Assembly (NCBI GenBank): GCA_002753335.1
Contig: PEAD01000020.1
Coordinates: 1 to 57,501, forward strand
Source: Nitrospirae bacterium MYbin3
GTDB taxonomy: Bacteria; Nitrospirota; Thermodesulfovibrionia; Thermodesulfovibrionales; Dissulfurispiraceae
Direction of reading: 5' to 3'
DNA: 57,501 nt
This document shows positions 2,949 through 52,800 of the stretch, piece after piece. The position numbers were made by a program, and so were the translations under genes. The notes under the pieces were generated by a model, which saw only the letters and a list, made by a program, of their open reading frames with translations, had not been told where the DNA came from and ran no database searches. Within the stretch, counting starts at the first letter, position 1. The number at the start of each line of letters is the position of its first letter.

Positions 2949-2974
2949 CATTAGTATCAATATATGATACTAAT
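2945..2974 (+). promoter_or_regulatory. hicAB promoter (-35 TTGACA) overlapped by a palindromic operator
   Basis: TTGACA 2945-2950; ATTAGTATCA-N5-TGATACTAAT perfect 10-bp inverted repeat 2950-2974. Confidence 0.65.
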
Positions 2975-2981
2975 AAGCAAG

Positions 2982-3245
2982 GTGAATAAAAAACATCGCA
3001 AAACATTAACAGCGATATTTCATGAGCCGGTTTTGTCGGACATTAATTGGTCGGATATCGAGACTATGCTATTGGCATTGGGCGCGGAAATAAGTGAGGG
3101 TAAAGGTTCACGAATGCGGGCAGCATTAAACGGAGTAAGGGCTGTGTTTCATAGACCTCATCCACAAAAAGAAACAGACAAAGGCGCTGTTAAATCAATG
3201 CGTAGATTTTTAAAGGAGGCTGGAATAAAACATGTTGACTTATAA
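2982..3245 (+). CDS. hicA: HicA-family toxin
   Basis: WSDIETMLLALGAEISEGKGSR...FHRPHPQKE; GTG start at 2982. Confidence 0.9.
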   Translation: MNKKHRKTLTAIFHEPVLSDINWSDIETMLLALGAEISEGKGSRMRAALNGVRAVFHRPHPQKETDKGAVKSMRRFLKEAGIKHVDL

Positions 3246-3561
3246 AGGATATACCGCAAAGGTAGAATTTGATGAAGACGCTATGCTATTTCATGGGGAG
3301 GTGATAGGAATTAAAGATGTGGTTACCTTTCAGGGAAGCTCTGTAAAAGAGATAGAAAAATCATTTAAGCATTCTATTGACGACTACCTTGAGTTTTGCA
3401 AAGAACGTGGGGAAAAGCCTGACAAACCCTTTACGGGCAAATTTGTAGTTCGTCTTACACCTGATCTGCATCGTAAGATTTACATATCTGCTGCAAGATC
3501 CGGAGAAAGTATAAATACATGGCTAAACAAGAATCTGGGCCAAGTTTTAAATGCTCGTTGA
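3232..3561 (+). CDS. hicB: HicB-family antitoxin
   Basis: YKGYTAKVEFD...GKFVVRLTPDLH ribbon-helix-helix C-terminus; overlaps hicA. Confidence 0.9.
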   Translation: MLTYKGYTAKVEFDEDAMLFHGEVIGIKDVVTFQGSSVKEIEKSFKHSIDDYLEFCKERGEKPDKPFTGKFVVRLTPDLHRKIYISAARSGESINTWLNKNLGQVLNAR

Positions 3562-7818: not shown

Positions 7819-8582
7819 AACACCTCATCAGCATCAAAAACAGGCCCCTCTTTACAAACCCGTTTGTACTCATACTCAACGGCGGATGATTTTGACTTAA
7901 CAACACATCCCAGACAGGCGCCTATTCCGCAAGCCATATGCTCTTCAAGAGATACATAGCATTTAAGATTATTATGTTTTGCAATTTCGGCCACCTTCTT
8001 CAGCATCGGGTGTGGGCCGCATGCATAAACAGGCATTGACCGGCCTTCGTTTTTTATAAATTCTGACAGTTTGTCAGTAACAAGACCTTTCACTCCTGAA
8101 GAACCGTCGTCAGTGGTAGAAAAAGCTTTTGCCGAAAGTTTTGAGGCTTCTTCAAAACAGATAAGCTCTCTGACATTTCTTGCACCATAAAACAGCATCG
8201 CCTTTCCGCGTTTTTTTTCTAAAAGAGAATAGAGAGATGCTATGCCGACCCCACCGGCAACCGCTATGAACGGCCCCTCAGGATCCGGATATGCCTTGCC
8301 GAGAGGTCCGACAACATTTATAAAATCGCCCCTATTAAATCCTGCAATACTCGTAGTGCCCTTCCCCCTGACCCTGTAAAGAAACTGCAGGCATCCGTCA
8401 TTAAGCCTGAATATGCTGAAAGGCCTTTTGAGAAGAGGATCTGTTGAACGGCCTGATTCGAGCATATAGAATTGTCCGGGCAAAGGAACTGAAACTTCTG
8501 AAGCAGGTGACAGTGTTATAAGCTTGAATGACTCTGCTGCAAAGTTGTTGTCTATGACCTTTGCCTTAAAATGCCTACGCAA
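7812..8582 (-). CDS. pyrK: Dihydroorotate dehydrogenase electron transfer subunit
   Basis: RPFSI, GGVG, MACGIGACLGC...VCKEGPVF [2Fe-2S] motif. Confidence 0.95.
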   Translation of the reverse strand: MRRHFKAKVIDNNFAAESFKLITLSPASEVSVPLPGQFYMLESGRSTDPLLKRPFSIFRLNDGCLQFLYRVRGKGTTSIAGFNRGDFINVVGPLGKAYPDPEGPFIAVAGGVGIASLYSLLEKKRGKAMLFYGARNVRELICFEEASKLSAKAFSTTDDGSSGVKGLVTDKLSEFIKNEGRSMPVYACGPHPMLKKVAEIAKHNNLKCYVSLEEHMACGIGACLGCVVKSKSSAVEYEYKRVCKEGPVFDADEVLW

Positions 8583-9048
8583 AGGTTATCTCTGTTATCT
8601 CGTATTCAAAAGTTCTGGCCGGAGCCTTTACCATGGCGGTATCGCCCACTTCCTTGCCTATCAATGCCTTGCCGACAGGAGAGCTTATAGAGATTTTTCC
8701 GCTCTTTACATCAGCCTCGTCAGGCCCTACAAGAATAAATTCAAACTCCTCATCCGCTCCGGTATCGTACACCTTAACCTTTGCTCCAAACGCCACCCTG
8801 GATTGATTGATCTTAGATGTATCTATCACATCAGCCATAGAAATCTTGGCCTGCAACTCCTCTATTCTGCCTTTGATGAACGACTGCCGTTCACGGGCCG
8901 CATGATATTCGGCATTTTCGGAAAGGTCGCCGTGAGCCCTCGCCTCAGCAATATCCTGAATGTTCCTTGGACGATCCACCTTGATGAGCTTGTCAAGCTC
9001 GTCTTTGAGCTTCTTGAATCCATCAGGGGTCATCGGTACACGAGTCAT
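8575..9048 (-). CDS. greA: Transcription elongation factor GreA
   Basis: ARAHGDLSENAEYHAA, SPVGKALIG. Confidence 0.95.
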   Translation of the reverse strand: MTRVPMTPDGFKKLKDELDKLIKVDRPRNIQDIAEARAHGDLSENAEYHAARERQSFIKGRIEELQAKISMADVIDTSKINQSRVAFGAKVKVYDTGADEEFEFILVGPDEADVKSGKISISSPVGKALIGKEVGDTAMVKAPARTFEYEITEITFA

Positions 9049-9157
9049 AATCTGTATTGCTCTCCTTTAAAATCAGGTGATGCTTTTAAGAAATACATTA
9101 CCACTTTTAGCGTATTTTTTCAAAAAACCGTTTGAGAGTTTCAGGTTTGGCTATGTT

Positions 9158-9802
9158 TTATGGATTATGCCGACGTTTATGCTTAACAAACTCGATAATG
9201 CCAGGAAGGATAGAGAGAAAAATTATAACCAGTATGACAATAGTAAAATTCTTTTTAATAAAAGGGATATTGCCGAAAAAATATCCGCCGCCCACAAAAA
9301 ATACTATCCAGAATATACCGCCCACAACATTGTAGATAATGAATCTCCTGTATGACATGCGTCCGATGCCGGCAACAAAAGGTGCGAAGGTCCTGATTAT
9401 AGGCATAAACCGCGCTATGATTATGGTCTTGCCGCCGTGCTTTTCGTAGAACCTGTGCGTCCGTTCAAGATACTCTTTTCTGAAAAAACGAGAGTCCTCG
9501 TAATGAAAAACCTTCGGGCCTAGATAAAAACCTATCCAGTAGTTCAGCGTATCACCGGTTATCGCAGCCACAATCAGCAATACAGAGAGGAAAAAAGGAT
9601 CAAGAGATCCTAGCGCTGCAAAGGTTCCGGCCGCAAAAAGCAAAGAGTCTCCCGGAAGCAGCGGAGCAACCACAAGTCCTGTTTCACAAAATATGATCAA
9701 AAAAAGTATGGCATATGTCCATGCGCCATAGCTTCGTATGATCATGTCAAGATGCTTGTCGAGATGCAATAGTATGTCTATGAAAGCTGTGATTATATCC
9801 AT
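9158..9802 (-). CDS. dedA: DedA family membrane protein
   Basis: FCETGLVVAPLLPGDSLLF, ARFMPIIRTFAPFVAG. Confidence 0.9.
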   Translation of the reverse strand: MDIITAFIDILLHLDKHLDMIIRSYGAWTYAILFLIIFCETGLVVAPLLPGDSLLFAAGTFAALGSLDPFFLSVLLIVAAITGDTLNYWIGFYLGPKVFHYEDSRFFRKEYLERTHRFYEKHGGKTIIIARFMPIIRTFAPFVAGIGRMSYRRFIIYNVVGGIFWIVFFVGGGYFFGNIPFIKKNFTIVILVIIFLSILPGIIEFVKHKRRHNP

Positions 9803-9903
9803 AACCGGAATTCATTATCATAACACAGAGATTCATTTTCCTTGTAAAGCTCACATGTTTGCGATAAAATAAATAACAGCACCTCACATTACCGGATATT
9901 TAC

Positions 9904-11136
9904 ATGGTCGATGAAAAAGACAAACTAAAAAGAATTATAAATATCGGCATCGAACTTGCCGGAGTTAAAGATATAGATGTTCTGCTCGAACGAATCCTAT
10001 CCGAAGCTCGTGAGTTTGCAAACGCAGACGCGGGCTCGATATACATAAAGTATGAGGACAGGCTCAAGTTCAAATACACGCAGAACGACACTCTGCAAAG
10101 CAAACTGCCAAAAGGCAAAAAGCTTATCTACTCAACCTTCACTGTTCCTATAAACAACGCGTCTATTTCGGGCCATGTAGCCCACACTGGAGAAATTACT
10201 AATCTCCCCGACGTCTATTCTTTGGGCAATGTATATCCATTTTCATTCAACCGCAGTTTTGACGAAATGACAGGATACAGGACCAAGTCGGTGCTGACGA
10301 TACCGCTCAAAACAAACAGGGGAGATATTACCGGAGTTCTTCAGCTGATAAACTGCACCGATGCATCCGGAAATGTAATCCCGTTCCCCAAAAATGAAGA
10401 GCCATTGATTGTACATTTTGCGAATTTGGCAGCAATGGCGATAGAGAGGGCACAGATGACGCGCTCTATGATCTTAAGAACAGCCAAGATGGCAGAACTC
10501 AGAGATCCAAAGGAAACCGGCGCCCATGTCAACAGGGTAGCCTCTTACTCTATAGAAATATACGAAAAATGGGCGATTAACAGGGGAATAAGCCAGCAGG
10601 AAATAGAACCCAAAAAAGATGTCCTGCGCATGGCTGCAATGCTGCATGATGTCGGCAAAGTTGGCATTACTGATGCCATACTAAAAAAACCGGCCCGCTT
10701 AACTCCCGAAGAGTACGAAATCATGAAGAAACACACCATTCTCGGAGCCCAAATGTTTGCGGACGTTTATTCAGAATTTGATGAATCATCAGCGATAGTG
10801 GCGCTGAATCACCATGAACGATGGGACGGCAACGGATATCCGGGACATGTAAACCCGTTTACAGGAGCTCCGCTATCCGGATACGAAAATGAATCTGGAA
10901 AGGCGCGGGGAAAGAAAGAGGAAGAAACCCATGTCTTCGGTAGGGTCGTGGCGGTTGCGGACGTTTATGACGCTCTGAGTTCAAAGCGTGTGTATAAAGA
11001 GAAGTGGGAAGAGTCTGAAGTCTTGGAGACATTGAGAAATGAACGAGGTAAGCAGTTCGACCCGGAAATGATAGATGCTTTTTTATCGGTCTTGGATGTG
11101 ATAAAAAGCATATCCGAACGCTATCCTGAACACTAA
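9904..11136 (+). CDS. GAF + HD-GYP cyclic di-nucleotide phosphodiesterase
   Basis: N-terminal GAF; LHDVGK, HHERWDGNGYP, VADVYDAL. Confidence 0.9.
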   Translation: MVDEKDKLKRIINIGIELAGVKDIDVLLERILSEAREFANADAGSIYIKYEDRLKFKYTQNDTLQSKLPKGKKLIYSTFTVPINNASISGHVAHTGEITNLPDVYSLGNVYPFSFNRSFDEMTGYRTKSVLTIPLKTNRGDITGVLQLINCTDASGNVIPFPKNEEPLIVHFANLAAMAIERAQMTRSMILRTAKMAELRDPKETGAHVNRVASYSIEIYEKWAINRGISQQEIEPKKDVLRMAAMLHDVGKVGITDAILKKPARLTPEEYEIMKKHTILGAQMFADVYSEFDESSAIVALNHHERWDGNGYPGHVNPFTGAPLSGYENESGKARGKKEEETHVFGRVVAVADVYDALSSKRVYKEKWEESEVLETLRNERGKQFDPEMIDAFLSVLDVIKSISERYPEH

Positions 11137-22284: not shown

Positions 22285-22491
22285 TCACCATCTGCTTATT
22301 ATCCTGAGAATAATAGCTTCATTAGGACAATTCTCGGCCGCTCTCGTCAACCGCACATCCTCATCCTGAATAGGGTAAGAAACCGAAGATTTCTCGCCCT
22401 TTATCGAAAAAACTTCGGATGCTCTAGAGGTGCAGGCCCCGCATCCCACGCATTTTTTAGTGTCTATTTTTATACTGACTTTACGCGCCAA
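22285..22491 (-). CDS. Small single-cluster ferredoxin
   Basis: CVGCGAC...AENCP motif. Confidence 0.75.
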   Translation of the reverse strand: MARKVSIKIDTKKCVGCGACTSRASEVFSIKGEKSSVSYPIQDEDVRLTRAAENCPNEAIILRIISRW

Positions 22492-22493
22492 AG
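22436..22493. repeat. 58-bp direct repeat, copy 1 (5' end of the ferredoxin gene)
   Basis: 56/58 identical to 23287-23344. Confidence 0.9.
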
Positions 22494-22729
22494 CTGTTTT
22501 AGTTGTCTATATTTGTCGGGCATCCAGTAAAAAACACAAAGACTTATAGATTCCCGCTCAACGCACTAAAAAAAGTATGGACTATAGATGCGGGAATGAC
22601 GTAAGTCGTTATTTTGAGACTGTTAATAATTGTACCACAAAAATCACAGGGCCTTCGGCTGCTGATTCCATAACATTAAAATATTTTATTTTTGCCCTTT
22701 CAGAAAAATCTCTATGCTATAATATTTTT

Positions 22730-22945
22730 ATGAATACTGCCGCTGAACTCGACAGCATCACAGAGATACTTGCTAAAATGCCCGAATCGGTGTTGCAGGA
22801 AGTTAGAGACTTCGCCTTTTATCTTGCAGACCGAGAACGCAGAAGAAATGCGCTTATCAAAAGGGTGCAAGAGGCAGAGGCATCAGCTCCAACACGATAC
22901 GATTCTGTTGATGATGCGGTAAATGCAGTATTTGATGAAGTTTAA
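22730..22945 (+). CDS. Putative antitoxin (small acidic protein)
   Basis: MNTAAELDSITEILAKMPESVLQEVRDFAFYL; overlaps the downstream toxin; TGcTATAAT ends 6 nt before the ATG (possibly leaderless). Confidence 0.7.
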   Translation: MNTAAELDSITEILAKMPESVLQEVRDFAFYLADRERRRNALIKRVQEAEASAPTRYDSVDDAVNAVFDEV

Positions 22946-23204
22946 ATTTGACTACGCACCGGCATATCTTAAAAACGCACGCAAGCTCGCTAAAAAATAT
23001 CCTCAACTAAAAAAGACCTACACAGAAGTTCTGTATAAACTTGCAGAAAATCCCTTTAATCCGCAACTGCACACGCATCCGCTTACAGGAGAACTTAAGG
23101 GTAAATATGCCTGCTCTCTGACTTATGAACTTCGCATTGTTTTCAAGCTGAATGAGGATGTTGTCCACTTGCTTGATATAGGCTCACACGACGAGGTTTA
23201 TTGA
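22935..23204 (+). CDS. YafQ/RelE-superfamily mRNA interferase toxin
   Basis: LHTHPLTGELKG...LRIVF...LLDIGSHDEVY. Confidence 0.85.
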   Translation: MKFKFDYAPAYLKNARKLAKKYPQLKKTYTEVLYKLAENPFNPQLHTHPLTGELKGKYACSLTYELRIVFKLNEDVVHLLDIGSHDEVY

Positions 23205-23282
23205 TACGAGTTACGATTATTCTGTCATACACGAATGCCTTTGTCGGGCATCCGTGTATCTAAAGAGAACCGTGCCCTTTAA

Positions 23283-23344
23283 TTAAGCCCCGCATCCTAC
23301 GCATTTTTTAGTGTCTATTTTTATGCTGACTTTACGCGCCAAAG
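23283..23344 (-). repeat. 58-bp direct repeat, copy 2: truncated ferredoxin 5' end (19 codons then TAA)
   Basis: MARKVSIKIDTKKCVGCGA* preceded by an AGGAGA RBS. Confidence 0.85.
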
Positions 23345-23544
23345 TTGCTCTCCTGCTAAACTTTTTTTCCTTTAGGCTCACAGGGCCTTCGGCTGTTGCC
23401 TACCGACCCCGCTTGCCTTTGTGCTTTTTGCCCTATGAAATACCGTTGCTTTTAATTTCACGGGGGCAGGACAGCGGTCTGGACACATCGCGCACTGACC
23501 GTGCATCCTTAAACGCAGCGGTTCGCGCTTGTTAATGATGTGTG

Positions 23545-23670
23545 CTGGCGAGGCGGAAGCCAAGATTGTTGTTCCTGTTGTCCGGATTGTTGTTGTTGCG
23601 ATTGGCTGAGCGAACATTCCTCGCGTTGTTGTTCCAGCTGCCGCCACGATTCACCCGGTTGGAGCCGCTC
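23545..23670 (-). repeat. DGR template repeat (TR)
   Basis: Ungapped 126-bp match to 25950-26075; 15 AAC/AAT codons in the target frame ([41 protein letters not shown]). Confidence 0.95.
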
Positions 23671-24688
23671 TCCGACCGCTGCCCGTATTAGCAAAAAGCC
23701 TTTTCCTTAAATTCAGTGAATCAGCAAACCCCGCAAACCCTATTATGCTCGCAAGGCTCATGCTGTATTTATCTTCGTCAATAAGTCCTCGCCTGAACTC
23801 ATTTTCCCTCTGCCTGATTTTGGCCTTGAGCCGTTTGATGTTCTCACTTTTGATACGAAGTAGCGACGGAAACACCCTGAAACCAAGAAACGGCAATCCG
23901 TTCAGCCTCGAATTTATCATGGTTGCGGAGTCTTTCAGTTTAAGACACAGACGCTGCTCAAGGAAATTCTCAGACAGTTTCAAAAGTTCTTTTAAACGCT
24001 CTTTGTCGTCAGAGAATATAACGCAGTCGTCCATGTAGCGAAGATACGCTTTGCAGCCAAGTTCGTCTTTTATGTAGTGGTCAAAGGCATCGAGATAAAC
24101 ATTCGCAAAAAACTGGCTTGTCAGATTACCGATAGGCAAGCCCTTGCCCGTCTGCTCTCCCCTGCTCGCGTCATTGTTGGCGACTATTATTTTTATCAGA
24201 TCAAGCAACCTTTTGTCCTTTATCTTTCTTTCAATGAGTCCGATCAGAACACTGTGATCCATGCTCTCGAAGTATTTATTGATATCGAATTTCAGATAAT
24301 AGCGGTTCTTGCGCATGAACTCCTGCGCCCTTCTGACGCATTTGTGCGTGCCCTTTTCCTTTCGAGTGGCGTAGGAATCATAGATAAACACCCTTTCAAA
24401 TATCGGCTCAAGAGCAGCAACTACAGAGTGGTGCACTACCCTGTCCCTGAAAGAAGCTACGCTTATCGTCCTTTCCTTAGGCTCATATACCTGAAAATAA
24501 CGGTACTTGTCTGGCCGGTAGATACCGTTTAACAGCTCACGCTGTAATTCAAAAAGTAGGTGTTCAAGCTCAAACTCAAAGGCGCATGCTTCTTCGGTTT
24601 TACCGCTGCCTCTCATCGCCTTTTTGAAAGCTCGATACAAGCTTTCAAATGTGCAGACCTTTTCAAACAGGTTTCCGGTTCTTTTCAT
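23651..24688 (-). CDS. DGR reverse transcriptase
   Basis: [43 protein letters not shown]; 345 aa with no maturase or endonuclease tail. Confidence 0.95.
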
Positions 24689-25019
24689 GCGCCGATTTCC
24701 TCCATCCGCCCACCATAACTCCGGTTTCGTTCAGTTCCCTGCTGATGAACTCGTACTGACTGGATGAGAGGTATTTTCTGTTGAATGATATTCTGAAAAG
24801 AACTCTCAGTTTTTCTATATATAGGTTCAACTTATCCAATATATACGCCCTGTCTTTGCTATATATAGCCTCAATTATGCCTTCGGTTATGTCCAAAGAA
24901 AGGTTTGCTATCCTGTCCGAGAAGCTGAAACGCACACTTTTGGGGAAGCTGTCTGTCCTGTCGAGTATCCAGTCCTGCACCGAAAGCCATTTGTTGAAAA
25001 CAGGGTAGTCCTTGTTCAT
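24663..25019 (-). CDS. avd: DGR accessory variability determinant (four-helix bundle)
   Basis: FPKSVRFSFSDRI, LRVLFRIS, ETGVMVGGW; overlaps the RT start. Confidence 0.9.
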   Translation of the reverse strand: MNKDYPVFNKWLSVQDWILDRTDSFPKSVRFSFSDRIANLSLDITEGIIEAIYSKDRAYILDKLNLYIEKLRVLFRISFNRKYLSSSQYEFISRELNETGVMVGGWRKSAHEKNRKPV

Positions 25020-25029
25020 TTTCCCTTTT

Positions 25030-25053
25030 TGTCACATTGAGCCTGTCGAAGGG
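25030..25053 (+). repeat. REP-like palindromic repeat, copy A
   Basis: TGTCACATTGAGCCTGTCGAAGGG; contains the GIY-YIG stop codon. Confidence 0.75.
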
Positions 25054-25334
25054 CGTTTTTTCGACAACTCTATCAATCTTTCAAAATCCCCATTTATGAG
25101 AGACTCCTTCTTCCGTCTTGACCAGCCTTTAATCTGTTTCTCCCTAGATATTGCTTCAACAACATCTCCAAACTCCTCAATATACATTAGGTTAACAGGT
25201 CGTTTCTCATGGGTATAACATCCTTTAATAATTCCCTCTTGATGCTCATAGAAACGCCTTTCAACATCATTGGTTACACCTGTATAATAGCTTCCGTCCG
25301 AGCATTGCAATATGTAAATGTAGTAGCTCTTCAT
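25032..25334 (-). CDS. Stand-alone GIY-YIG nuclease
   Basis: YYIYILQCSDGSYYTGVTND..RR..EH, AISREKQIKGWSRRKKE. Confidence 0.9.
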   Translation of the reverse strand: MKSYYIYILQCSDGSYYTGVTNDVERRFYEHQEGIIKGCYTHEKRPVNLMYIEEFGDVVEAISREKQIKGWSRRKKESLINGDFERLIELSKKRPSTGSM

Positions 25335-25350
25335 TTTTTATTTTCTATAT

Positions 25351-25423
25351 CGTCATCCTTCGACAAGCTCAGGATGACATTTTCAGCTGGCTCACCACTG
25401 TCACCCTGAGCTTGTCGAAGGGG
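25351..25423. repeat. Inverted pair of REP-like repeats (copies B and C)
   Basis: CGTCATCCTTCGACAAGCTCAGGATGACA, 19 nt, TGTCACCCTGAGCTTGTCGAAGGG. Confidence 0.85.
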
Positions 25424-25850
25424 CGTAAAAAGTCCTGATCATCTCCGTAACAGCGGCGCCGTATTTTTCGATCTTTTTCTTTCCAAAGCCTCTGATGGCC
25501 TTCAATGCCTCAAGGCTGCGGGGCGTGTTCTTGATAATATCCTTAAGTTCCCTGTTGGTTGCCACTATATATGTCGGCACGCCTTCTTTCTCTGCCTGTT
25601 CCCTGCGCCATTGCTTGAGCCGGTCAAACAGCAGCTTTTCGGCTTCATTCATGCCTTCGTGTTCGCCGCCTTCAGCCTTTTCAAGCACAGTATCGTACTC
25701 GAGAAACACCGTCCAGCTTGGGTTTCCTTCGTGGATAAAAAATTCTGTCCTAAAACTTTTCACCTGCTTGTTAAGGCAGAAATCGTTCAGTATTTCCTCG
25801 CTGAACGATTTGGTTGCAGAATCATAGGGTATGGTCAGTATTTTAAACAT
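25401..25850 (-). CDS. HRDC-domain DGR accessory protein
   Basis: LFDRLKQWRREQAEKEGVPTYIVATNRELKDI...IRGFGKKKIEKYG. Confidence 0.88.
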   Translation of the reverse strand: MFKILTIPYDSATKSFSEEILNDFCLNKQVKSFRTEFFIHEGNPSWTVFLEYDTVLEKAEGGEHEGMNEAEKLLFDRLKQWRREQAEKEGVPTYIVATNRELKDIIKNTPRSLEALKAIRGFGKKKIEKYGAAVTEMIRTFYAPSTSSG

Positions 25851-25867
25851 GGCTTAAAGACAAAGAC

Positions 25868-25887
25868 TGCGGGGCTCTGCCCCTGCA
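25868..25887 (-). other. GC-rich hairpin downstream of the VR (candidate DGR cis-acting stem-loop)
   Basis: Minus strand TGC-A-GGGGC-AGA-GCCCC-GCA, about 52 nt after the target stop. Confidence 0.55.
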
Positions 25888-25939
25888 CCCCGAAAGAATA
25901 TAAAAAACAGCAAAAGGTAAAAAGGTAAGAATCCAAAAA

Positions 25940-26968
25940 CTAAGGAGTCCTGGCGAGGCGGATGCCAAGAAAGCCGTACCTGTAGCCCGGATTGTCGAAG
26001 TTGCGAAGGGCTGACCGAACAAACCCCGCGTTGTCGTCCCAGCTGCCGCCACGATACACCCGGTAGGAGCCGCTCGAAGGCCCCGTAGGATTGTTCCTCG
26101 GACTGTTGCTGTAATAATTATCTGCCTTCCAGTCCTGCACCCATTCCCATACATTGCCGCTCATATCATATATACCGAGTCCGTTCGGCGCTTTTGTTCC
26201 AACCTGATGCGTCTTGCTGCCGGAGTTTGAACTATACCACGCTACACTGTCAACATCATTGCCACCGGAATATTTCTCGCTCTTGCCTCCACTCCTTGCA
26301 GCATATTCCCATTCGGCTTCTGTAGGCAATCTGTATTTGCCGCCGCCTGAACGGCTGTTTAGTCTGCTTATAAATTCCTGAACATCATTCCAACTGACAT
26401 TCTCCACAGGGCAGTTATCGCCGCAGTTCTTGAAGTGCGATGGATTATTTCCCATCACCGCCTGCCATTGCCCTTGTGTCACTTCATACTTGCCTATGTA
26501 ATAATCATCTACACAAACCTCATGCACAGGCTTTTCATCATCGTAACATTCACTCGTCCAGCTTCCGCATCCCATCTGATAACAGCCGCCTTTGACAAAC
26601 ACAAGCTCCATGCCGGTCGCAGAGTCTTTGATGAGCTTGCCGCCTGCAACAACCTCAAAATCGGCGCTTCCTGAATAGCCGCGCGAAAAGTCCTGAAGCA
26701 CATTCCAATATATCTTCTTTTTCTTTCCTGTTTTTGTCTTGCCGTAATCTCCTGTAAGATGCAGCTTTTCTGCGGAATAGTCCCTGCCCTTGACGGTTAT
26801 CGTAACGCTCACCTCGGCATCTTCATTGTATTCGCCCTCAAGGTCGTATTCCATAAGCATGCGGTTGCCCTGCTGCCGGACATCGAGGTTCTTGACCTCT
26901 GCGGCAAAGGATAGACCGCACACTAATATGGACATAATTAAAAATGCGAAGAGTTTTACAGATTTCAC
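25940..26968 (-). CDS. DGR target: secreted protein with C-terminal FGE-sulfatase (C-type lectin fold) domain
   Basis: Signal peptide; YEVTQ, RLPTEAEWEYAAR, NGLGIYDMSGNVWEW, RGGSW; VR at the C-terminus. Confidence 0.93.
   Translation of the reverse strand: MKSVKLFAFLIMSILVCGLSFAAEVKNLDVRQQGNRMLMEYDLEGEYNEDAEVSVTITVKGRDYSAEKLHLTGDYGKTKTGKKKKIYWNVLQDFSRGYSGSADFEVVAGGKLIKDSATGMELVFVKGGCYQMGCGSWTSECYDDEKPVHEVCVDDYYIGKYEVTQGQWQAVMGNNPSHFKNCGDNCPVENVSWNDVQEFISRLNSRSGGGKYRLPTEAEWEYAARSGGKSEKYSGGNDVDSVAWYSSNSGSKTHQVGTKAPNGLGIYDMSGNVWEWVQDWKADNYYSNSPRNNPTGPSSGSYRVYRGGSWDDNAGFVRSALRNFDNPGYRYGFLGIRLARTP
25950..26075 (-). repeat. DGR variable repeat (VR)
   Basis: 105/126 identical to the TR; 19 of 21 differences at TR adenines. 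Confidence 0.95.
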
Positions 26969-27243
26969 TTGTATGCCCCTCCACGATGATCTATTTCATA
27001 AACATAAAGCTCACCGGTATTCCTGTCAATTTTAAAAATGATACGAACATTACCGAGCCTCATTCTCATAAAACCCTTCCATTGTCCTTCGAGAGATTTT
27101 ATCTGGAGCTCTCTGAAAGGGACTATTCCCTGTTCGTCCACAGACAATGCAAGCCTTTTGATTTTAGTTCTGATTCGCTCACGAGTTGCATCATCTGAAC
27201 CTATAATGAACTTCTCGGCCTGTCTGCTGAACTTTAATTTCAC
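26965..27243 (-). CDS. RelE/ParE-family toxin
   Basis: IKSLEGQWKGFMRMRLGNVRIIF...EIDHRGGAYK. Confidence 0.85.
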   Translation of the reverse strand: MKLKFSRQAEKFIIGSDDATRERIRTKIKRLALSVDEQGIVPFRELQIKSLEGQWKGFMRMRLGNVRIIFKIDRNTGELYVYEIDHRGGAYK

Positions 27244-27443
27244 TTCATTACCCAGTCTGTCATGTCTTTAAAATCAGATTTTTTGTATTTGGCCGGAGTG
27301 CCGTAATTACCCTCTATCTCTTGCATCTCTTTCTTTGATACCGGCGGAACCAAAACCTCATATAACCCTAACCGCTCTTCGCGTATTGCATCACGAACAC
27401 TCTCCCTGATTATTTTTCTCAATACCTTTTCAGCAACTACCAT
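27240..27443 (-). CDS. Putative antitoxin
   Basis: Small gene overlapping the toxin start; AGAGGAGG RBS before MVVAEK. Confidence 0.65.
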   Translation of the reverse strand: MVVAEKVLRKIIRESVRDAIREERLGLYEVLVPPVSKKEMQEIEGNYGTPAKYKKSDFKDMTDWVMK

Positions 27444-27540
27444 TTGATTGCCTCCTCTGTAAAATATGCCCTGTTCCGCCTTTGAAAAATCATATTCTTT
27501 TTTCATATCAACTCATTCACCCTTCCAAGCTTCTACCCTT

Positions 27541-29241
27541 TTACTTCTTCAAAGTCACTATTACATCCGAGTCATGGCCGTTAACTACCGGCTCCTGCTC
27601 TCTGTTGTTCAGCCTGCCTGCCATGTACGGCACATGCTCTTTAAGATAGCTCCTGAGTTCGGCAATGGTTATTTTTTTGTCGCTGTTCTTGTCAGCTTCG
27701 CCCTGCAAGGCCTTGAAGAAATAATAGGTGAAAAGCGAATGCTTCATGTCCGGATACCAGTTTGAGACCTGCCCTATGGCCGCGCTGGTTATTATCACCG
27801 CGTTTGACGGCCCCCGATATTCCTTCTTCACCTGAACCATTGCGGGGCTCATGTTCTTAAAGAGCATTCCAACAGGAGAGTTGCCCGAAAAACAGGAGTC
27901 TAAAACTATCGTCATTTTTTTTGCATGCACCTTCGAGAGGTTGTTGTAAAAGGTCTGGAGTTTGTAGCCGTTTGCCTTTATGAATTCGGGATTCGCGTCA
28001 ACAGGCACAAAATAGGCCTCTGTGCTGTCAAGATCCGGCGCGCCGTGGCCGGCGTAATAAATAAACACCTTTGACGCACCGCTCTTTACAAATTTGTAGA
28101 GCCTGCCCTTGGGATCGTTTTCGGTTCCGAAGAGTTCATTGAATTTAGCAACCGTAGCGTCCTCGGCATAAAGTATGTTCATAGGGTCATAGCCGAAGGT
28201 CTTTATAAGATACTCCTTCATGATGCGTGCGTCCCTGTCCGCAAATTCCACATTCGGAAGGCCTGAGGCCGAATAGTTCCTGTTGCCGATTATCACGGCA
28301 ACATCGTACTTGCCCGCCTTTTCGCCTTCGGGTATCTTGGTCTCTACATCTATGCTCAAGCCGCCCGCAGTCTGGATTTCATCTTTTTTACCTGTGTCCT
28401 CCGGCATTACCACAACAGGCCCAGCAATGCTTTTCTGCTGGGCATTCATCACCAGTTTGAGCGGTTCGGATTTGCCGAACTTCGGTCTGGACTCGTTTAT
28501 CTGAACCGTAAGAGGGATCTTCTCTCCAGCCTGAATGCGGGTGTTGGTATAGAACATAAACTTCAGATCTTTGAATTTGCCGGAGCGGATTGCGCCTATG
28601 TCAAAATGGGTGTGTCCGTCTCCTCCCATAAACACATTGTCCCCGGGCTTAATGTCAACCGATACTTCCCGCGCATCTCCGTAGCCCTTGTTCTGTACCC
28701 TGACCGTCAGCTCAACTATTTCCATAGGCTCGACCTTGCCGTTTCCGTTCTGGTCGTTAACCCCTATGTCAGCCACAATCAGCATTGGCGGCTCAAAAGC
28801 CTTTGTGCTGAAGGCTATACCCGGATGTTTTAAATCGAAACCATTAGCCTCTTTAAGAGCGATGCCAAAAACTGCCCTGCCTGAGAGAATTTCTTCGTCC
28901 GCTGCAAGCTCTATCTCCTTGGTAATACTCTGCCCTGCGCCAATCGTGCCTAAGCTTATGTCCCTGTCAAAGCGCAGGCCTTCTATCCGTCTGTCAGGTT
29001 TAATCTCTGCCCTCACATCAAAGGCATCGCCTGATCCGCTGTTTTTTATTTCGAGTATAAGCCTTCCGGTTTCGCCAGCATCAAGAATGTTGTTGCCGGA
29101 TGGCTCATTGAATTTTACGGTCGCAGACAGGTTCGGCGGCGCTGGAAATACATTGACATTCGCAGACCTCTTTTCGGCAAAACCTTCTGCCGCAGAGATC
29201 AGCAATGCCGCACAAACAAAAACAAGCAATTCCCTCTTCAT
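27541..29241 (-). CDS. Secreted caspase-family (peptidase C14) protein with N-terminal beta-sandwich domains
   Basis: Signal peptide MKRELLVFVCAALLISAAEGFA; catalytic dyad IYYAGHG and LDSCFSG; D/N-rich loops (SGNNILDAGE, NGNGKVEPME). Confidence 0.85.
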   Translation of the reverse strand: MKRELLVFVCAALLISAAEGFAEKRSANVNVFPAPPNLSATVKFNEPSGNNILDAGETGRLILEIKNSGSGDAFDVRAEIKPDRRIEGLRFDRDISLGTIGAGQSITKEIELAADEEILSGRAVFGIALKEANGFDLKHPGIAFSTKAFEPPMLIVADIGVNDQNGNGKVEPMEIVELTVRVQNKGYGDAREVSVDIKPGDNVFMGGDGHTHFDIGAIRSGKFKDLKFMFYTNTRIQAGEKIPLTVQINESRPKFGKSEPLKLVMNAQQKSIAGPVVVMPEDTGKKDEIQTAGGLSIDVETKIPEGEKAGKYDVAVIIGNRNYSASGLPNVEFADRDARIMKEYLIKTFGYDPMNILYAEDATVAKFNELFGTENDPKGRLYKFVKSGASKVFIYYAGHGAPDLDSTEAYFVPVDANPEFIKANGYKLQTFYNNLSKVHAKKMTIVLDSCFSGNSPVGMLFKNMSPAMVQVKKEYRGPSNAVIITSAAIGQVSNWYPDMKHSLFTYYFFKALQGEADKNSDKKITIAELRSYLKEHVPYMAGRLNNREQEPVVNGHDSDVIVTLKK

Positions 29242-46020: not shown

Positions 46021-49000
46021 CTACCTAACAGTCCTCCGAATCTTCCTTTTTTTAGGCTGTGTCATATCTGACGCGGTTATCATCATTTTTTCTGTACTGT
46101 CTATCGTAAACACACATCCCTGAAACTCATTTTCGGAACCAAATACAGGGTAACCGCTTACAAGCAACTTCAGTTTGGATTTCCCTGATATCTCGGAATA
46201 CCTATAGTCAAAAAATGGTTTCCTATTCAGGCTCATATGCTTGTATGGAATTGTATTGTCATTAAGAAGGTTTCCCCTATTGTCAGTGATCCTCCATCCC
46301 GGAGCACTGAGGCCAAATTGGGCAAGAATCTCCTCATCCTTAGCAATAATATTTTCTGCGCTATTGTTCGCAAATACCAATGTACCGAAAGCATCAAGAA
46401 TTATCTTGCCCGTAGGACTTTTTTCGCATATAAGGCCTTTACTGCATACATTGCTCAAAAGGTTGTGTTTGACCTTAAGACGCTCCTCAAACCCTTTCCT
46501 CTCGGTTATATCTATGAAGGTTATAACAATCCCCGCTATCGCATTGTCTACCGTGCGATAAGGGTCTATCTTCATAAGAAAGTATTTATTGTTCCAGCTT
46601 TCTACCTCGGTCTCTTTAGATATAAGCGTTTTTGTTACACTTTCAATATCAGAAAAAAAATTGGGGTAGTGAATGTTGTGAGAAAAGTGCTGGATGGGTC
46701 TGCCCAGATCGCGATCCATAATGTTTACAATATCACTGATTGCCGGAGTAAACTTTCTTATGTTCATCTGCAAGTCAAGAAATAGCGTGCCTATATTGGT
46801 GTTTTTATACAAATTAATGATGTCATTATTCAGGTCTGTAAGCTCTTCAATTTTTTTCTGATATTCAGAGTTTACGGTGTACAGTTCCTCGTTTACAGAC
46901 TGCAGCTCTTCATTTGTTGATTGCAGTTCCTCGTTGGAAGCAATAAGCTCTTCATTTGTAGATTGCAGCTCTTCGTTGGAAGTCTCCATCTCTTCTATTG
47001 AGGCCTGCAGATTTTCTTTAGTGTACTGCAGAGCCTGCTCAAGATCGGCTATTCGCTGATCTCTTATCTCATCAACACCTATTCCGTCAGCTTCCTCACG
47101 TGATATGGATCGGGAAATATTTTCTTCAAACGTGAGAATAATAAAAAGTCTTTTGCTTTTTTCATCAATAACCGGATGGACTGTTATATTCACAAGATAT
47201 GTGCCGTCTTCATCTTTTATCTTCAGATCTTTATAAATGACATCACCTTTTTTCTTCAAAGCCTTATGAATCGCGGTATTAAGAGGCATAGCAAGCTCTT
47301 TTCGCACCATTTTAACGATGTTCAGGCTTGCCTTGCCTGTAGGAATCTTTATGTATCTGGCCAAATCTCCAAAGACATGCAAAAGTTCATGATTTTCGTC
47401 AATAATTACGCTAGGAGGTGCAAACCTTGCAACAAGAGACTGGTATGCAATATCAAGTGGGTCATCTATCTTGAGCATTCTGACAGGATATCCGGCATCA
47501 ATTTTATTAATTGCTCCGGAACCTTTCTTTACTGTTGGCATCACGAAATCATTCATAAGAGGAAGCTTCGAACCTATTTTGTCGCGGTAAACCTTCCACT
47601 TGCTGTCAACCACCGCAAAACTATTGTTCAGGTCCCCTAATGACTCACTGCTTCCTAGAAAAAGATAGCCGTTTCTGTTAAGTGCATAATGCAAAGAGTG
47701 GAGAACTTTTTTCTGCATTACAGGTTGAAAATAGATAAGCATATTTCTACAGCATGTCAGATCTATTTTTGAGAAGGGTGGGTCAGTAAGGATATTCTGC
47801 ACCGCAAAAATAACCATTCGTCTAATATTCTCATTAATCTGATATCCTCCATCTTTTTTAGTGAAATGGAGTTGAAGCCTCTCGTGGGATATATCGGATA
47901 TTATGCTCTCAGGGTATATTCCTGTGCCAGCATATTCCACTGCATCCTTGTCAAGATCTGTAGCAAATACCTTTACATCAAATCTTTTGTTTGAAGCATC
48001 CATATACTCTTTTAGCATTATTGCCAGAGAGTATGCCTCCTCCCCTGTGGAGCAGCCTACACTCCACACTCTGATAGGAGAGTTGCTGTTGCGACCTTCA
48101 AAAATATTTGGGATCACCTTTTGCGCTATGATTTGAAAAGCATCCTCATCTCTGAAAAACTTTGTGACGCCTATAAGCAAATCTTTATAAAGTATTCTAG
48201 CTTCGCTAGGAGACTGCGCAAGATGCACAACATAGTCTTCTATTCTGTTTATCTGATTTATACTTATTCGACGTTCGATTCTTCGCACAATGGTATTAGG
48301 CTTATAGAATGTAAAATCCACTCCTGTACGTTCACGCAATATGCCCAGAATCTTTGACAGATTATCTTCATCCTTGAGGATGAGTTCTTCGACTTTGTCA
48401 CCCTTATGAATGAACGGATGCTTGACATATTTAAGCAATTCATCAGACATTTTGTCCGGCGGCAAAACATAATCAAGCAGGCCGGTTGCCGCAGCACTCA
48501 TAGGCATTCCATCAAATTTGGCAGAATCAGCGTCCTGAGCCATAACCATACCACCAGCACCTTTTATAGCCCTGATTCCCAAAGTTCCATCGCTACCAGT
48601 ACCGGACAAAATTATACCGATAGCCCTGTCGCCCTGGTCTTCAGCAAGGGAACGGAAAAATATGTCTATGGGCAGATTAAGAAAGTGACCTTGCCCAGAT
48701 GGATTATTAAGATCCGTCAGATACAGTTTGCCATGAAAGATAGTGAGGTTTTTTTTGGGAGGGATAAGGTATGTGGTGTTAGCCTCAACCGGCATGCCGT
48801 CTTCGGCCCGGTAAACATTCATGGCTGTGTGCTTTGACAGCAACTCCACCATTAGGCTCTTGTAGTTCGGGGAGAGATGCTGAACTACCACGAATGCAAG
48901 GCCGCTGTCAGAAGGCATATTCCTAAAAAAACGTTCAAGCGCATCAAGCCCTCCAGCAGAAGCTCCTATTCCCACAATTGCTATAGGGACATCCCATGTG

Positions 49001-49074
49001 GCCTTGGTCTTAGTCTGTTTTTTGCCTCGCGTCTTAACAGGCTCCGAAATAATCTTCGTTTTTTTCTTAGCCAT
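46021..49074 (-). CDS. CheB methylesterase-CheR methyltransferase fusion with coiled coil and PAS
   Basis: [43 protein letters not shown] heptads. Confidence 0.9.
46837..46980. repeat. 144-bp direct repeat, copy 1
   Basis: 143/144 identical to 51558-51701. Confidence 0.9.
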
Positions 49075-49164
49075 CTCATCCTCCCCCAACAGTTAGAAAT
49101 AATGCAATAAGGCGCGACCTATTTTATGTTTAATTAATATTAACGTTTAGGAAACTTACTGTAT

Positions 49165-49181
49165 ATAAGTAGATATACTTA
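49165..49181. promoter_or_regulatory. Dyad TAAGTA-N4-TACTTA, copy 1
   Basis: ATAAGTAGATATACTTA is repeated exactly at 56306-56322. Confidence 0.6.
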
Positions 49182-49227
49182 GAGGGTTTGACGCTTTGAA
49201 GCAGGCATTCGCATTGCTTACATCGAG

Positions 49228-49887
49228 TCACTGCTTCAGAGATACTATTCCTTTTTGTATAGCGAACATGACAAGCTCTGTTTTGCTATGAATGGATAGT
49301 TTGCGCATCATATTGGAGCGGTGTACTTCAACTGTACGTGTGCTGATGGAAAGCATCTTTGCTATTTTCGAACTGCTGAACCCTCGAGCAGCCATATGAA
49401 GAACTTCGCGTTCTCTTGCCGTCAAACTCGCAAATGGGTCGTTTGCCGATGAATCAACAGCTCTATTCATGTATAAGTTAAGCATCTCGGTTGTTAGTGG
49501 AGGCCCCAGATATTGATGCCCGGCAAGCACCTCATGAACAGCCTGAACCAATATACTTCCTGATGATCCCTTGAGAACATAGCCATTTGCCCCTTTTTTG
49601 AAAGCCTCAACTACGTAGGCTTCATTTTCATACATTGACAGGATTATGATCCGGATAGACTTAGAAAATTCTCTAACCCGTCGGGTTACCTCAATTCCGT
49701 TTATGTCTGGCATCTCTATATCCAAGACCAGAATGTCCGGACAGAGCTTCCTGGCCTCATCAACTGCCTGAAGTCCATTCTCGGCCTCACCTACAATTAC
49801 AAAGCCAGGTTCTCTTTCAAGAAGCGCCCTGACGCCCTGTCTTACGATGGAATGATCCTCAACAAGCACTATCGAAATTTTTTTCAT
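49228..49887 (-). CDS. NarL/LuxR-family response regulator
   Basis: Receiver plus LTAREREVL...ISTRTVEVHRSNMMRKL. Confidence 0.92.
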   Translation of the reverse strand: MKKISIVLVEDHSIVRQGVRALLEREPGFVIVGEAENGLQAVDEARKLCPDILVLDIEMPDINGIEVTRRVREFSKSIRIIILSMYENEAYVVEAFKKGANGYVLKGSSGSILVQAVHEVLAGHQYLGPPLTTEMLNLYMNRAVDSSANDPFASLTAREREVLHMAARGFSSSKIAKMLSISTRTVEVHRSNMMRKLSIHSKTELVMFAIQKGIVSLKQ

Positions 49888-49889
49888 TA

Positions 49890-52800
49890 TTATGTTTTGG
49901 CCATATCCGATGTGATATTCTTGGGTATCTCTATCGAAATCCTTGTACCGGTTTCTGCAGAGCTTATTATGGTCATGCTACCGCCGAGCATAGTAAGTCT
50001 CTCACGCATGCCAGGAAGACCAAGTGTATTTCCGTTTGCAAGCACATTTTTACTATCAAAGCCCTTGCCTTTGTCTTCTATGGTAATAAAAAGCTTTTCT
50101 TTGTTTTCTGTAAGCACAACTTCCGCTTCCTCTGTTGAAGCATGGCGTGCAATATTAGTAATAGCTTCCTGTACGATACGGTATGCTGCTGTTTCTACTT
50201 CCGGATTAAAACGATTGCTTGTTGTGGAATGCCTGAACATTATCTTAATTTTAGTATTGTTTGTGAACCTATTGAACTGCCACTGAAGAGCATGCACCAG
50301 TCCTAAATCGTCAAGCATGGAAGGCCGAAGATTAAGAGACAAATCTCTGACTTTACCCAAGAGCTGTCCAACTGATTCTTGTATTTCGTCCAGTATTTTG
50401 TGCATCTCTCCGGAGGATGTTCTTGAAGCCGCTGTTTCGAGCGATAGATTGATTACAGTAAGCATCTGCCCTATTTCGTCATGCAGTTCCCGTGCTATAG
50501 AGCGGCGCTCGGTTTCCTGAACCTTGAACAGAAATCTGGAGAGGTTTTGAACCTGTCCTGTATATTGCTGGAGCGCCTGTTCTGCCCTGTTGCGATCTTC
50601 CAGAGATCGTGCAAGCCATATATTGTTAAAACTCAGTTTTGATAGCATAGCGGCAAACTTTATGTAAAAATTCATAGCAGTATCAACAGTTTCTTTTGAC
50701 CAGCGTGGCACTCTTTCGAGGGCTTCAAGATACTTCTTTTCATTGAACCCGTATTTTCGGGCTTGTGAACGAAATACTTTGTAGTTAATCGTCTCGTCAG
50801 AATAAAGAAACTGTCCAAGAAAGAGATTTCCTACTTTTTTGTCTCCAATCATAATTGGGGTTGAGATGTCCCACATATTGTTCTTGCATTTGTAAAGCTT
50901 GAATTCACCAGGAGCAACGCCATTTGAGAGTATCAAGTCACTCTGAATGCAGTTCTTGCAGGACTCAGAATTTACACGATGATAATTAACACATACGTCC
51001 TGCCATCCGGTACCGACAAGGACCTTACCCGCAAGATCAATGATGCCAATGCCTATATTCGTGAGCTTGTAAAAATCATCCATAAGAGACTGAACATCCG
51101 ATGTATTGATTATATCGCCCAACTCCAGATTACCAATATTCCCTTCGGGGTTTAGTATGCTTTCAAGCTTAAGCCTTACAGCCTGCTCGCTTTCCCTTAG
51201 TCTTTCCTCCATTTTTTTGCGCTCTGTGATATCAACAAAAGTTATGACTATGCCGAGTGCTTCATTGTCAATAGTACGGTAAGGTGATATATGCATTAAG
51301 AACCATAAGTTGTCTATAGTATGTATTTCGGCTTCTTTCGCTATCAACGTTGCCATAACTTCTTTGATCTCATCAATAAAGCCGGGATAGTTAAATCTTG
51401 TAGAAATATGGTTTATAGGTCTCCCTATATCCGATTCCATTAAGTTTATAGTGGCTGTAACTGCAGGTGTATAGCGGTTAATGATAAGCTTTTTGTCCAG
51501 AAAGATTGTGCCTATATCTGTGCTTCTTATAAGGTTAATTATGTCATTGTTAAGCTGTGTAAGCTCTTCAATTTTTTTCTGATATTCAGAATTTACGGTG
51601 TACAGTTCCTCGTTTACAGACTGCAGCTCTTCATTTGTTGATTGCAGTTCCTCGTTGGAAGCAATAAGCTCTTCATTTGTAGATTGCAGCTCTTCGTTGG
51701 AGGTACCAAGCTCTTCTATCGAGGCCTGCAAATTCTCACGGGTGTAGAGAACTTCCTGTTCAAGATCTGAGATTCTCTGCTGATTTAACCCTTGCAGGTC
51801 TTCTGTCTGTATGTCTTGCTCTAAAGGCTCTTTGCATTTAAAACTTTCGAAGCTGATTAAAAGAAGTTCTTTTTGGGTAAATTCATCTGTTATAGGCTTA
51901 ACCTTGACCGTAACCACGTCAGCACGGTCATCCTCATTCAGCTTGTACCCCTTATACAAGATCTCCTGTTTGTCTTTCAACGCTTTATAGAAAGCGGTAT
52001 TCAGTACCAAAGAAAAATCCTTTGACACCATTTTAAGCAGGTTCAGACTCATCCTGCCATGAGGTAGTTTTATATATTTATTTACATCCCCGAATATGTG
52101 AAGCACATCAAAGTTTTCATCAACAACCACAGCTGGCGGTGCATACTCGTTTATAAGGCTTTGATATACCGATTGCAGAGATTCGTCAATAGCTGGAGGT
52201 TTATGCGAAGACGACATTACAGTCTTAAAAGGGAGTCTCGAACTTATGGATGTCAAGTTAGCCTGCGTGATTGGTTTGAATGTGTCGGTATTGCGGTATA
52301 TTTTCCATTTTTTATCAACAACACTGTACCGGCTTTCAAGTTCGCCTATAGACTCGCTATTTCCAAGAAAAAGATACCCGTCACAATTAAGAGAAAAAGA
52401 CAGGGATGAAAGAACCTTTTTCTGAATTTCTGGCTTGAAATATATAAGAAGATTCCTGCAGCTAACAAACTCGATTTTTGAAAAAGGGGGATCACTCGTA
52501 ATATTATGCGCTGCAAAAACAACCATCCGCCTTATTTTTTCATTCACTCGCCAGCCAATGTCAGCTTGAACAAAAAAACGTTTAAGCCTGTCTGCTGATA
52601 TATCTGCAACTATGCTTTCAGGATATATGCCAACCCCGGCATACTCAATAGCATCCTTGTCCACATCTGTAGCAAATATTTTAATGTCAAGTTTCTTTTG
52701 GATGCTATCAAGGTGCTCGCTAAATAGGATTGCCAAAGAATATGCCTCTTCTCCAGTAGAGCAACCCACACACCAGACTCTCAGAGTCTCGTTTTGTTTG

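Follow-up and report, generated by a model that had tools for sequence, protein, structure and literature searches.

What follows when a receptor rewritten by a diversity-generating retroelement (DGR) binds its ligand? The question is raised by a 57,501-nt stretch of Nitrospirae bacterium MYbin3 DNA (GenBank PEAD01000020.1; contig C63 of its own 2.93-Mb assembly, G000), hereafter the window, in which a DGR target gene follows a caspase-like protease gene and a toxin-antitoxin (TA) pair. For most cellular DGR targets the partner or output is not known, nor are the trigger and substrate of exported bacterial caspases; the genes described here name both sides and a third partner. We consider it somewhat better than an even chance that a DUF4384 protein, a caspase behind two immunoglobulin-like (Ig) domains and a binding protein tagged with a domain here called ND make up a predicted exported module that acts as a ligand-triggered protease outside the cytoplasm, the TA pairs being likely passengers of an insertion hotspot. 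The features of the locus were as follows.

27541..29241, minus strand: caspase-like C14 protease, 566 aa (Pfam Peptidase_C14 E = 2e-14, CARDB E = 7e-6).
27456..27506, minus strand: relic of another antitoxin gene, its 5' end (92% identity over 51 nt to a gene start in locus L021).
27240..27443, minus strand: likely antitoxin, 67 aa (GTGA overlap and position 5' of the toxin; no Pfam or NCBIfam family).
26965..27243, minus strand: RelE/ParE-superfamily toxin, 92 aa (Pfam ParE_toxin 26.4 bits, cut-off 23).
25940..26968, minus strand: DGR target, 342 aa (Pfam FGE-sulfatase E = 1e-49).
25947..26075, minus strand: variable repeat (VR), target codons 299-340 (differences from the template repeat).
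25866..25889, minus strand: GC-rich hairpin downstream of the VR (DNA fold).
25401..25850, minus strand: HRDC accessory gene (Pfam HRDC E = 1e-19).
25021..25423, minus strand: recent insertion with a GIY-YIG gene at 25032-25334 and a hairpin at 25350-25428 (Pfam GIY-YIG, palindromes).
24663..25019, minus strand: avd (NCBIfam DivGenRetAVD 95.2 bits, cut-off 80).
23651..24688, minus strand: DGR reverse transcriptase (RT), open frame, YMDD at 218 (Pfam RVT_1, motifs).
23542..23670, minus strand: template repeat (TR), with a 20-nt overlap with the RT stop (repeat comparison).
23287..23347, minus strand: 61-nt duplicate of a ferredoxin 5' end (other copy at 22436-22496, 95% identity).
22730..23204, plus strand: second TA pair, a DUF2281-like antitoxin at 22730-22945 and a YafQ/RelE-type toxin ending at 23204 (YafQ_toxin 40 bits, DUF2281 weak, TIGR02385 above cut-off).

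The caspase-like protein showed a predicted signal peptide, two Ig-like beta-sandwiches (the second being the CARDB match), a low-confidence linker and a caspase fold. Its AlphaFold2 (AF2) model had a mean predicted local distance difference test (pLDDT) score of 82.6 and matched the MALT1 caspase domain best in Foldseek (3v4o, E = 1e-9); Peptidase_C13 was also above its cut-off (26.6 vs 22.8). The His-Gly and Asp-Ser-Cys motifs, which the original prediction made from the letters had called intact, were found at H399-G400 and D448-S-C450, with H399 and C450 invariant in 6/6 and 38/38 aligned orthologues. D337 and D448 were also invariant across the 38 aligned orthologues, and we take these two Asp to stand at the S1 pocket positions. 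By its modelled fold and its His-Cys dyad the protein is a caspase-like C14 peptidase, for which proteolysis is predicted. The signal peptides claimed for both caspase and target were borne out as predictions by basic, hydrophobic and small-residue N-termini, with 11-residue hydropathy peaks of 3.36 and 3.01, respectively. Elsewhere in the same genome we observed at least 12 further caspase-domain matches and three other FGE-domain genes. Six tandem genes at C39:12138-22393 encode predicted exported caspase-domain proteins with differing N-termini, and an FGE-domain gene (C20:4666-8364), non-exported-looking, stood behind kinase-, phosphatase- and vWA-like genes (judged by eye) and resembled a separate conflict-type locus.

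The target consisted of a predicted signal peptide (residues 1-22), the unnamed beta-sandwich ND (23-110; about 26636-26902 in the window) and an FGE-type C-type-lectin domain (121-340). In its AF2 model (pLDDT 89.9) ND was all-beta, and the best Foldseek match was TvpA (2y3c, E = 1e-21). The C-terminal lectin fold contained the VR, as is expected of a DGR target. FGE enzymes carry a catalytic cysteine pair after an RGGSW motif. Enzyme identity was rejected here, with no Cys in codons 299-340, the VR stretch.

TR and VR differed at 22 positions over 129 nt; the 38 TR adenines accounted for 19 of these and the remaining 91 bases for 3 (Fisher p = 1e-9). With this adenine-directed pair, an open RT and the avd and HRDC accessory genes, the DGR is intact, and the lectin tip of the target has been rewritten by its adenine mutagenesis. 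The amino-acid variants possible at the VR number about 10^21 over 21 codons. In an alignment of 29 targets, codons with TR adenines reached an entropy of 3.0 bits, the remaining VR columns about 1.0. An adenine-specific TR/VR pair belonged to each of six ND-lectin genes adjoining a caspase gene, and one more such pair was truncated by a contig end; no further VR-like copies were found in the window's own assembly. The GC-rich hairpin sits where DGR target-recognition hairpins lie and may serve that function; a GC-rich inverted repeat downstream of the initiation of mutagenic homology has been described for DGRs (PMC5758913; here and below, statements from papers cited by PMC number or DOI refer to the parts of them at hand, unless the main text is named). 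Three short TR/VR-like matches in loci L053, L079 and L018 were discarded, lying outside targets.

We scanned metagenomes with a caspase alignment, which confirmed 73 loci among 522 candidates, and added 5 genome loci. We kept 46 loci (at least 50% identity, Ig part included), forming 36 clusters at 90% by single linkage, which chains some loci; the 32 loci excluded were partial or distant, and 4 of them had ND. Within 6 kb on the same strand, the 36 clusters showed an ND gene in 25 cases, DUF4384 in 22 and RT or avd in 14, many contigs being short. Restricting the count to the 16 clusters flanked on each side by at least 2.5 kb gave 14, 14 and 7, respectively. Of 61 relatives, the same 4 carried both the caspase and the DUF4384 orthologue; ND was present in these and, with weaker matches, in 2 more. 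Among 390 genomes of the class, caspase was found in 11, ND in 14 and both in 9, against about 0.3 expected when the window's own genome is excluded (kin inflate this test). A caspase homologue stood in the same locus in 8 of the 9 other genomes with a strong ND match (as the Ig half in G241, and split in G385), and in the ninth, G027, on another contig. The three genes thus co-occur even where they are split between contigs, as in G000 and G027, and the pairing of target and caspase genes extends over many anaerobic bacteria.

DUF4384 is, by its conservation in these loci, a third partner of the predicted module, encoded in this genome on another contig and outside the view of the original prediction. 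In the window's own genome its gene is an orphan in an isc-valS context (C8:24265-25122; 68% identity to that of genome G019). The isc-valS site in G019 contains the whole DUF4384-caspase-TA-target-avd block, and the module was therefore likely split in the window's genome, with DUF4384 left on C8 and the rest on C63. The proposed pairing of hypervariable receptor and protease is thus backed by neighbourhood, by genome co-occurrence and by the fusions described below, but the TA part of that proposal came out weaker. The caspase link was conserved in the neighbourhood check for C14 peptidases, and homologous DGRs did occur beside the caspase. A predicted complex of mature caspase and mature target scored 0.00 vs a mark of 0.32; controls were not folded, and the score carries no weight either way.

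ND is a 90-residue domain with no Pfam match in the target protein. With E <= 0.001 a profile search yielded 1,031 representatives. The domain began around residue 20-40 in most of the best 150, and it is repeated in some giant proteins. Every ND gene with a printed start opened with a signal-peptide-like segment (judged by eye). We scanned the domains of 94 of the best 150, which omits most short and most giant proteins, and found that FGE-type lectin and Lcl_C domains dominated the cargo, followed by PDZ, TPR, WD40 and single cases of others. A C14 domain was present in 4 of the 94. P0290 combined ND and PDZ-S41 with an Ig-Ig-caspase part 35% identical over 541 aa to the window's caspase, and P0319, with 44% identity to the target, had the order caspase, coil, ND and lectin. 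ND directly follows the signal peptide, carries interchangeable C-terminal domains and also occurs fused to the caspase family; we read it as a putative adaptor. A word-index search for ND among proteins of 600-2000 aa gave nothing, although the exhaustive profile search did find such proteins, and a search of the ESM Atlas gave no usable match.

Several ND proteins and arrays were observed on the way. P0290, P0349 and P0358 are ND-PDZ-S41 proteins, 2 of them with a C-terminal caspase, which places two proteases in one predicted exported chain. Five tandem ND genes (MORN, MORN-BON, beta-propeller and two unknown) were present in L144 (G161:C444, 7113-11537), with no caspase in the fetched stretch. 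L021 (G001:C6, 249-6277) carried a pair of ND-lectin paralogues whose tips differ; a different TA-type pair precedes each of them, and the stretch contains no RT. The genome has RTs elsewhere, and remote targeting of the paralogues is possible. In L053 (805-11692) the target-caspase module was duplicated, with HRDC, no RT and repeated HigBA-type pairs.

How, then, does the TA pair come to stand between caspase and target? The minus-strand order was caspase, antitoxin, toxin, target, HRDC, GIY-YIG, avd, RT and TR, and its first four genes agreed with the earlier description. So did the junctions: antitoxin/toxin and toxin/target are each a 4-bp GTGA overlap, and the target's ribosome-binding site (RBS), GGAGGGG, lies a few bases 5' of the target GTG within the toxin gene. 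The RBS bases code for Gly-Gly at the toxin C-terminus, and the equivalent site in L046 was weaker. Between the caspase stop and the antitoxin ATG, which has a strong RBS, there was no overlap but a 97-nt gap containing the relic antitoxin start. This spacing suggests that antitoxin, toxin and target are co-transcribed and translationally coupled. A promoter and terminator scan was at chance level (11 vs 11.3 and 6 vs 7.0), and an internal promoter for the target was dropped as a candidate, the TTGACA within the toxin gene not being conserved in G019. An Rfam search gave 0 matches. The pair follows the type II layout, in which a small gene overlaps the start of the RelE/ParE-fold toxin gene behind it, with no family match for the antitoxin.

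For the TA survey, 582 small open reading frames (ORFs) in 55 loci were reduced to 258 by composition and clustering; these and 21 others were run against Pfam, and the labels were spread by tblastn. Two labels were assigned by hand, to a ParE-like gene without a Pfam match (L021) and to a weak PBECR2 match (L044). Of 57 caspase junctions, 17 had TA genes no more than 700 bp away (16 of them co-oriented), vs 2 of 110 control junctions (odds ratio 23), the controls being long ORFs more than 5 kb away and mostly housekeeping. TA density was 2.27 per 10 kb within 1.5 kb and 0.38-0.55 further out, and the four main toxin families had 15 matches in the window's 2.93-Mb genome. The expected co-occurrence was therefore present as an enrichment, but seven TA families shared the 17 junctions (ParE/RelE 8, HEPN 3, HicA 2 and one each of DUF4258/BrnT-type, PIN, HigB and MazF), and 5 of the 16 well-flanked clusters had none. 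The TA pair was rejected as a fixed subunit of the module. The window's own pair recurred in just 2 of the 36 clusters, G019 and L046 (antitoxin identity 76% and 67%, respectively), and across loci the TA position varied from upstream of to between or downstream of the module genes.

The same junctions were occupied by GIY-YIG, DUF559 and Y1_Tnp genes. ND genes also overlapped DUF4384 and an unrelated gene, and showed gaps below 10 nt with the caspase gene; tight junctions are thus not TA-specific. The relic start, in frame with the present antitoxin, was found in G019 and was absent in L046. Its match is the start of a 66-aa gene beside BrnT in L021, and it is likely left over from an earlier BrnT-type TA insertion. 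The GIY-YIG gene between HRDC and avd, absent from the earlier description, is accompanied by a hairpin of -26.3 kcal/mol; the same palindromes flank an 84%-identical GIY-YIG gene at another position in L065, and a related contig (relatives' contigs were assembled from one DNA run holding relatives) joins 25020 to 25424, without the insertion. Together, the seven TA families, the relic, the absence of the GIY-YIG gene from a close relative and the tight non-TA junctions suggest that the module junctions are likely an insertion hotspot with TA pairs as passengers. Near the module, a crude palindrome detector registered no more than a weak excess (1.25-1.72 vs 0.41-0.77 per 10 kb) and was not used as evidence. 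The result is a caution, as a gene may come to be tightly coupled to a TA pair through a hotspot, and also a lead, as the junction enrichment is large and calls for an explanation.

The second TA pair, said to close the other end of the island, is present there but lies on the plus strand, convergent with the DGR, as a separate cassette. As a member of the operon it was rejected on its opposite strand and its position between the two 61-nt ferredoxin 5'-end copies. The stretch 22689-23235 recurred on a 697-nt contig whose two ends had no match in the window, and from this context the pair is read as a separate mobile cassette. Repeats of three lengths (61, 21 and 14 nt) enclose it at 22436-23398, a repeat near 22601 is like the NTS motif of PMC11893778, and the site looks like a duplication-associated insertion at the ferredoxin start. 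A HicA toxin gene and a downstream HicB-like gene at 2964-3561 form a third TA pair in the window.

In RT trees, which were quick trees, RTs of caspase-linked loci were intermixed with those of loci without a close caspase, and well-supported branches required at least 4 changes. The approximately unbiased (AU) test, from which the long-branch row L043 was excluded, rejected a single clade for the caspase-linked RTs (13 vs 10 rows, p-AU 1e-43). Among class genomes with a close RT, 3 of 11 also had the caspase, and in G019, behind the same caspase-TA-target run, stood another type of avd and a remnant of an RT. Since the caspase-linked RTs do not form one clade, the DGR is likely a swappable part whose cassettes were recruited to the module repeatedly. 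In four relatives (L008, L009, L149 and L150), which form an RT clade of their own, the DGRs stood beside phage-like tail genes (judged by eye).

Under the reading we favour, the DUF4384 protein, the caspase and the ND-tagged binding protein would all be exported by Sec, with ND as the docking adaptor through which the binding domain joins the protease complex. Once a ligand is bound, the caspase fold would be clustered and activated; paracaspases of the MALT1 type are activated by induced dimerisation or clustering. Either the ligand caught in this way or a substrate in the envelope would then be cleaved by the protease, likely after Arg or Lys given the two invariant Asp. As likely ligands we regard surface structures that change fast, whether on phages, epibionts or neighbouring cells. 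The RelE pair would be co-transcribed and coupled simply owing to its in-line insertion. ND, with more than 1,000 relatives, would be the linking domain of a three-protein system for what follows DGR receptor binding.

A number of observations weigh against this reading. No ND match was found in 2 of the 11 caspase genomes, and none of the 120 closest caspases listed had a lectin domain. The caspase part of P0319 is only distantly related to that of the window. ND is also repeated in tandem within giant proteins and is joined to cargo that is not sensor-like in appearance (cytochrome c7, FKBP, OmpH, beta-barrel), and stretches fetched from G008, G158 and G161 showed ND without a neighbouring caspase. 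In L036 (G042, 8450-10383) an ND-lectin gene is followed by an Ig-only caspase homologue lacking the protease domain. PADLOC 2.0 returned 0 families for the caspase, target, DUF4384 and both TA pairs, which for the core proteins counts on the same side. For the TA pairs, the odds ratio with 16 of 17 co-oriented exceeds what neutral passengers lead one to expect, and the retention of one pair in G019 at 70-76% identity is more than a neutral passenger needs.

The strongest competitor, which we hold to be unlikely though still a serious contender, is that the caspase and DUF4384 proteins process or anchor exported cargo, ND being a sorting tag and the DGR diversifying a displayed adhesin. Caspase-like folds have such roles: PorU processes cargo of the type IX secretion system, and Gpi8 acts in glycosylphosphatidylinositol anchoring. 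The position of ND nearly always directly after the signal peptide fits a tag, as do the breadth of its cargo (lectin, Lcl_C, PDZ, TPR, WD40, CBM96, MORN/BON, FKBP, LPP20, OmpH and multiheme), the different cargo of the five tandem ND genes in G161 and the Peptidase_C13 match of the caspase. Cellular DGR targets are also mostly read as adhesion proteins (10.1101/2020.04.01.020958). However, no caspase was present in the stretch fetched around the G161 array, and fusions of ND with caspases and with an S41 protease exist, which fits an adaptor common to sensor and effector better than a cargo tag.

An undescribed envelope immune system of anaerobic Nitrospirota and Desulfobacterota, working outside the cytoplasm like an antibody with a protease cascade and built from an ND adaptor, swappable DGR receptors, a DUF4384/paracaspase-like protease and an exchangeable TA stasis slot kept by selection, appears decidedly unlikely to us; a defence role for the module would stand on analogy. 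We also hold it to be quite unlikely that the TA slot is a functional, interchangeable stasis or death arm, in which one transcript would link the envelope sensor-protease to a cytoplasmic mRNA-cutting toxin and growth would stop upon sensing or locus loss. The junction enrichment (17/57 vs 2/110, 16 co-oriented), the density within 1.5 kb, the 15 genome-wide matches for the main toxin families, toxin-target overlaps with two different ParE/RelE types and the same pair retained in G019 and L046 all speak for such an arm. But an exported protease has no access to a cytoplasmic antitoxin, TA genes are missing from 5 of 16 well-flanked clusters and from between the six tandem caspase paralogues on C39, non-TA mobile genes use the same junctions, and the TA position varies. 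That caspase and target merely share a mobile accessory island and are functionally unlinked is somewhat less likely again: the other caspase-domain matches (at least 12) and three FGE-domain genes of the genome, the separation of the block from DUF4384 and from the isc-valS site that hosts it in G019, and related-RT DGRs without a close caspase in 10 comparison loci would allow it, but the co-occurrence survives where the genes lie on different contigs (G000, G027), the flanks vary from locus to locus almost throughout, gene order is shuffled, and ND-caspase fusions exist.

Is the predicted exported ND-caspase-DUF4384 module a known system? Published work already covers DGRs of the HRDC type, fusions of caspase and lectin, and caspase genes next to DGRs. 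The Treponema denticola DGR with TvpA (HRDC-containing Architecture C of Wu et al., PMC5758913; PDB 2y3c) shares the chromosomal DGR, HRDC, avd, RT and TR and an FGE-type lectin-fold target with a C-terminal VR, TvpA being also the best fold match. The window's target differs from TvpA in its ND, its cleavable-type signal peptide and its conserved caspase and DUF4384 partners; "caspase", "peptidase" and "toxin" each have 0 occurrences in the main text of PMC5758913. Cyanobacterial orthocaspase-lectin DGR targets (PMC7517822, where orthocaspase domains were found in variable proteins) and metacaspase-FGE proteins (PMC3501461, with an FGE domain in 33 of 671 metacaspases) pair the caspase fold with the same lectin fold. 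Those are single chains, the cyanobacterial targets being mostly predicted cytosolic, whereas here the two proteins are separate, predicted to be exported and linked via ND and DUF4384.

DGR conflict systems of multicellular bacteria (PMC10907252; PMC7159879; PMC8195603) combine a hypervariable lectin sensor with an adjacent caspase-like effector, as the window does. The fusion pattern of ND resembles their effector-associated domain (EAD) principle, a small non-enzymatic adaptor on both sensors and effectors. Their targets are mostly cytoplasmic or membrane-bound, with one secreted, in contrast to the predicted export here, and in the part of PMC10907252 at hand "toxin" had 0 occurrences and no TA link was reported. 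By Pfam and NCBIfam none of 11 locus genes encoded a MoxR ATPase with vWA or a STAND NTPase, and related loci showed none that recurred as a neighbour, within a Pfam scan of small ORFs and selected large ones. MALT1 (PDB 3v4o) likewise combines a caspase domain with Ig-like domains, at 16% identity. The Ssn GIY-YIG nucleases (PMC11893778) share with the window a stand-alone gene of 100 aa between hairpin repeats in an insertion sequence-like layout; the window's gene has the single domain and the hairpin repeats, a likeness of layout, and is a passenger here. In titles and the opening parts of abstracts, or listing entries for papers on DUF4384 and caspases, and with subscription papers uncovered, we found no description of the split exported DUF4384/caspase/ND module or of TA enrichment at it; supplements of DGR papers may list this neighbourhood.

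A phage-borne DGR was rejected on its flanks, which are pho/pst genes and hydrogenase-like genes, and no caspase relatives were confirmed among 596 candidate stretches of viral contigs. A search for the empty site in the same-genus G001 found the phoB-like and hydrogenase flanks on separate contigs with other neighbours, which did not fix the island boundary. Further along the window, at 46021-53777, we observed two large paralogous genes, CheB/CheR-like as judged by eye, which carry 21-nt periodic repeats and are separated by about 4.7 kb.

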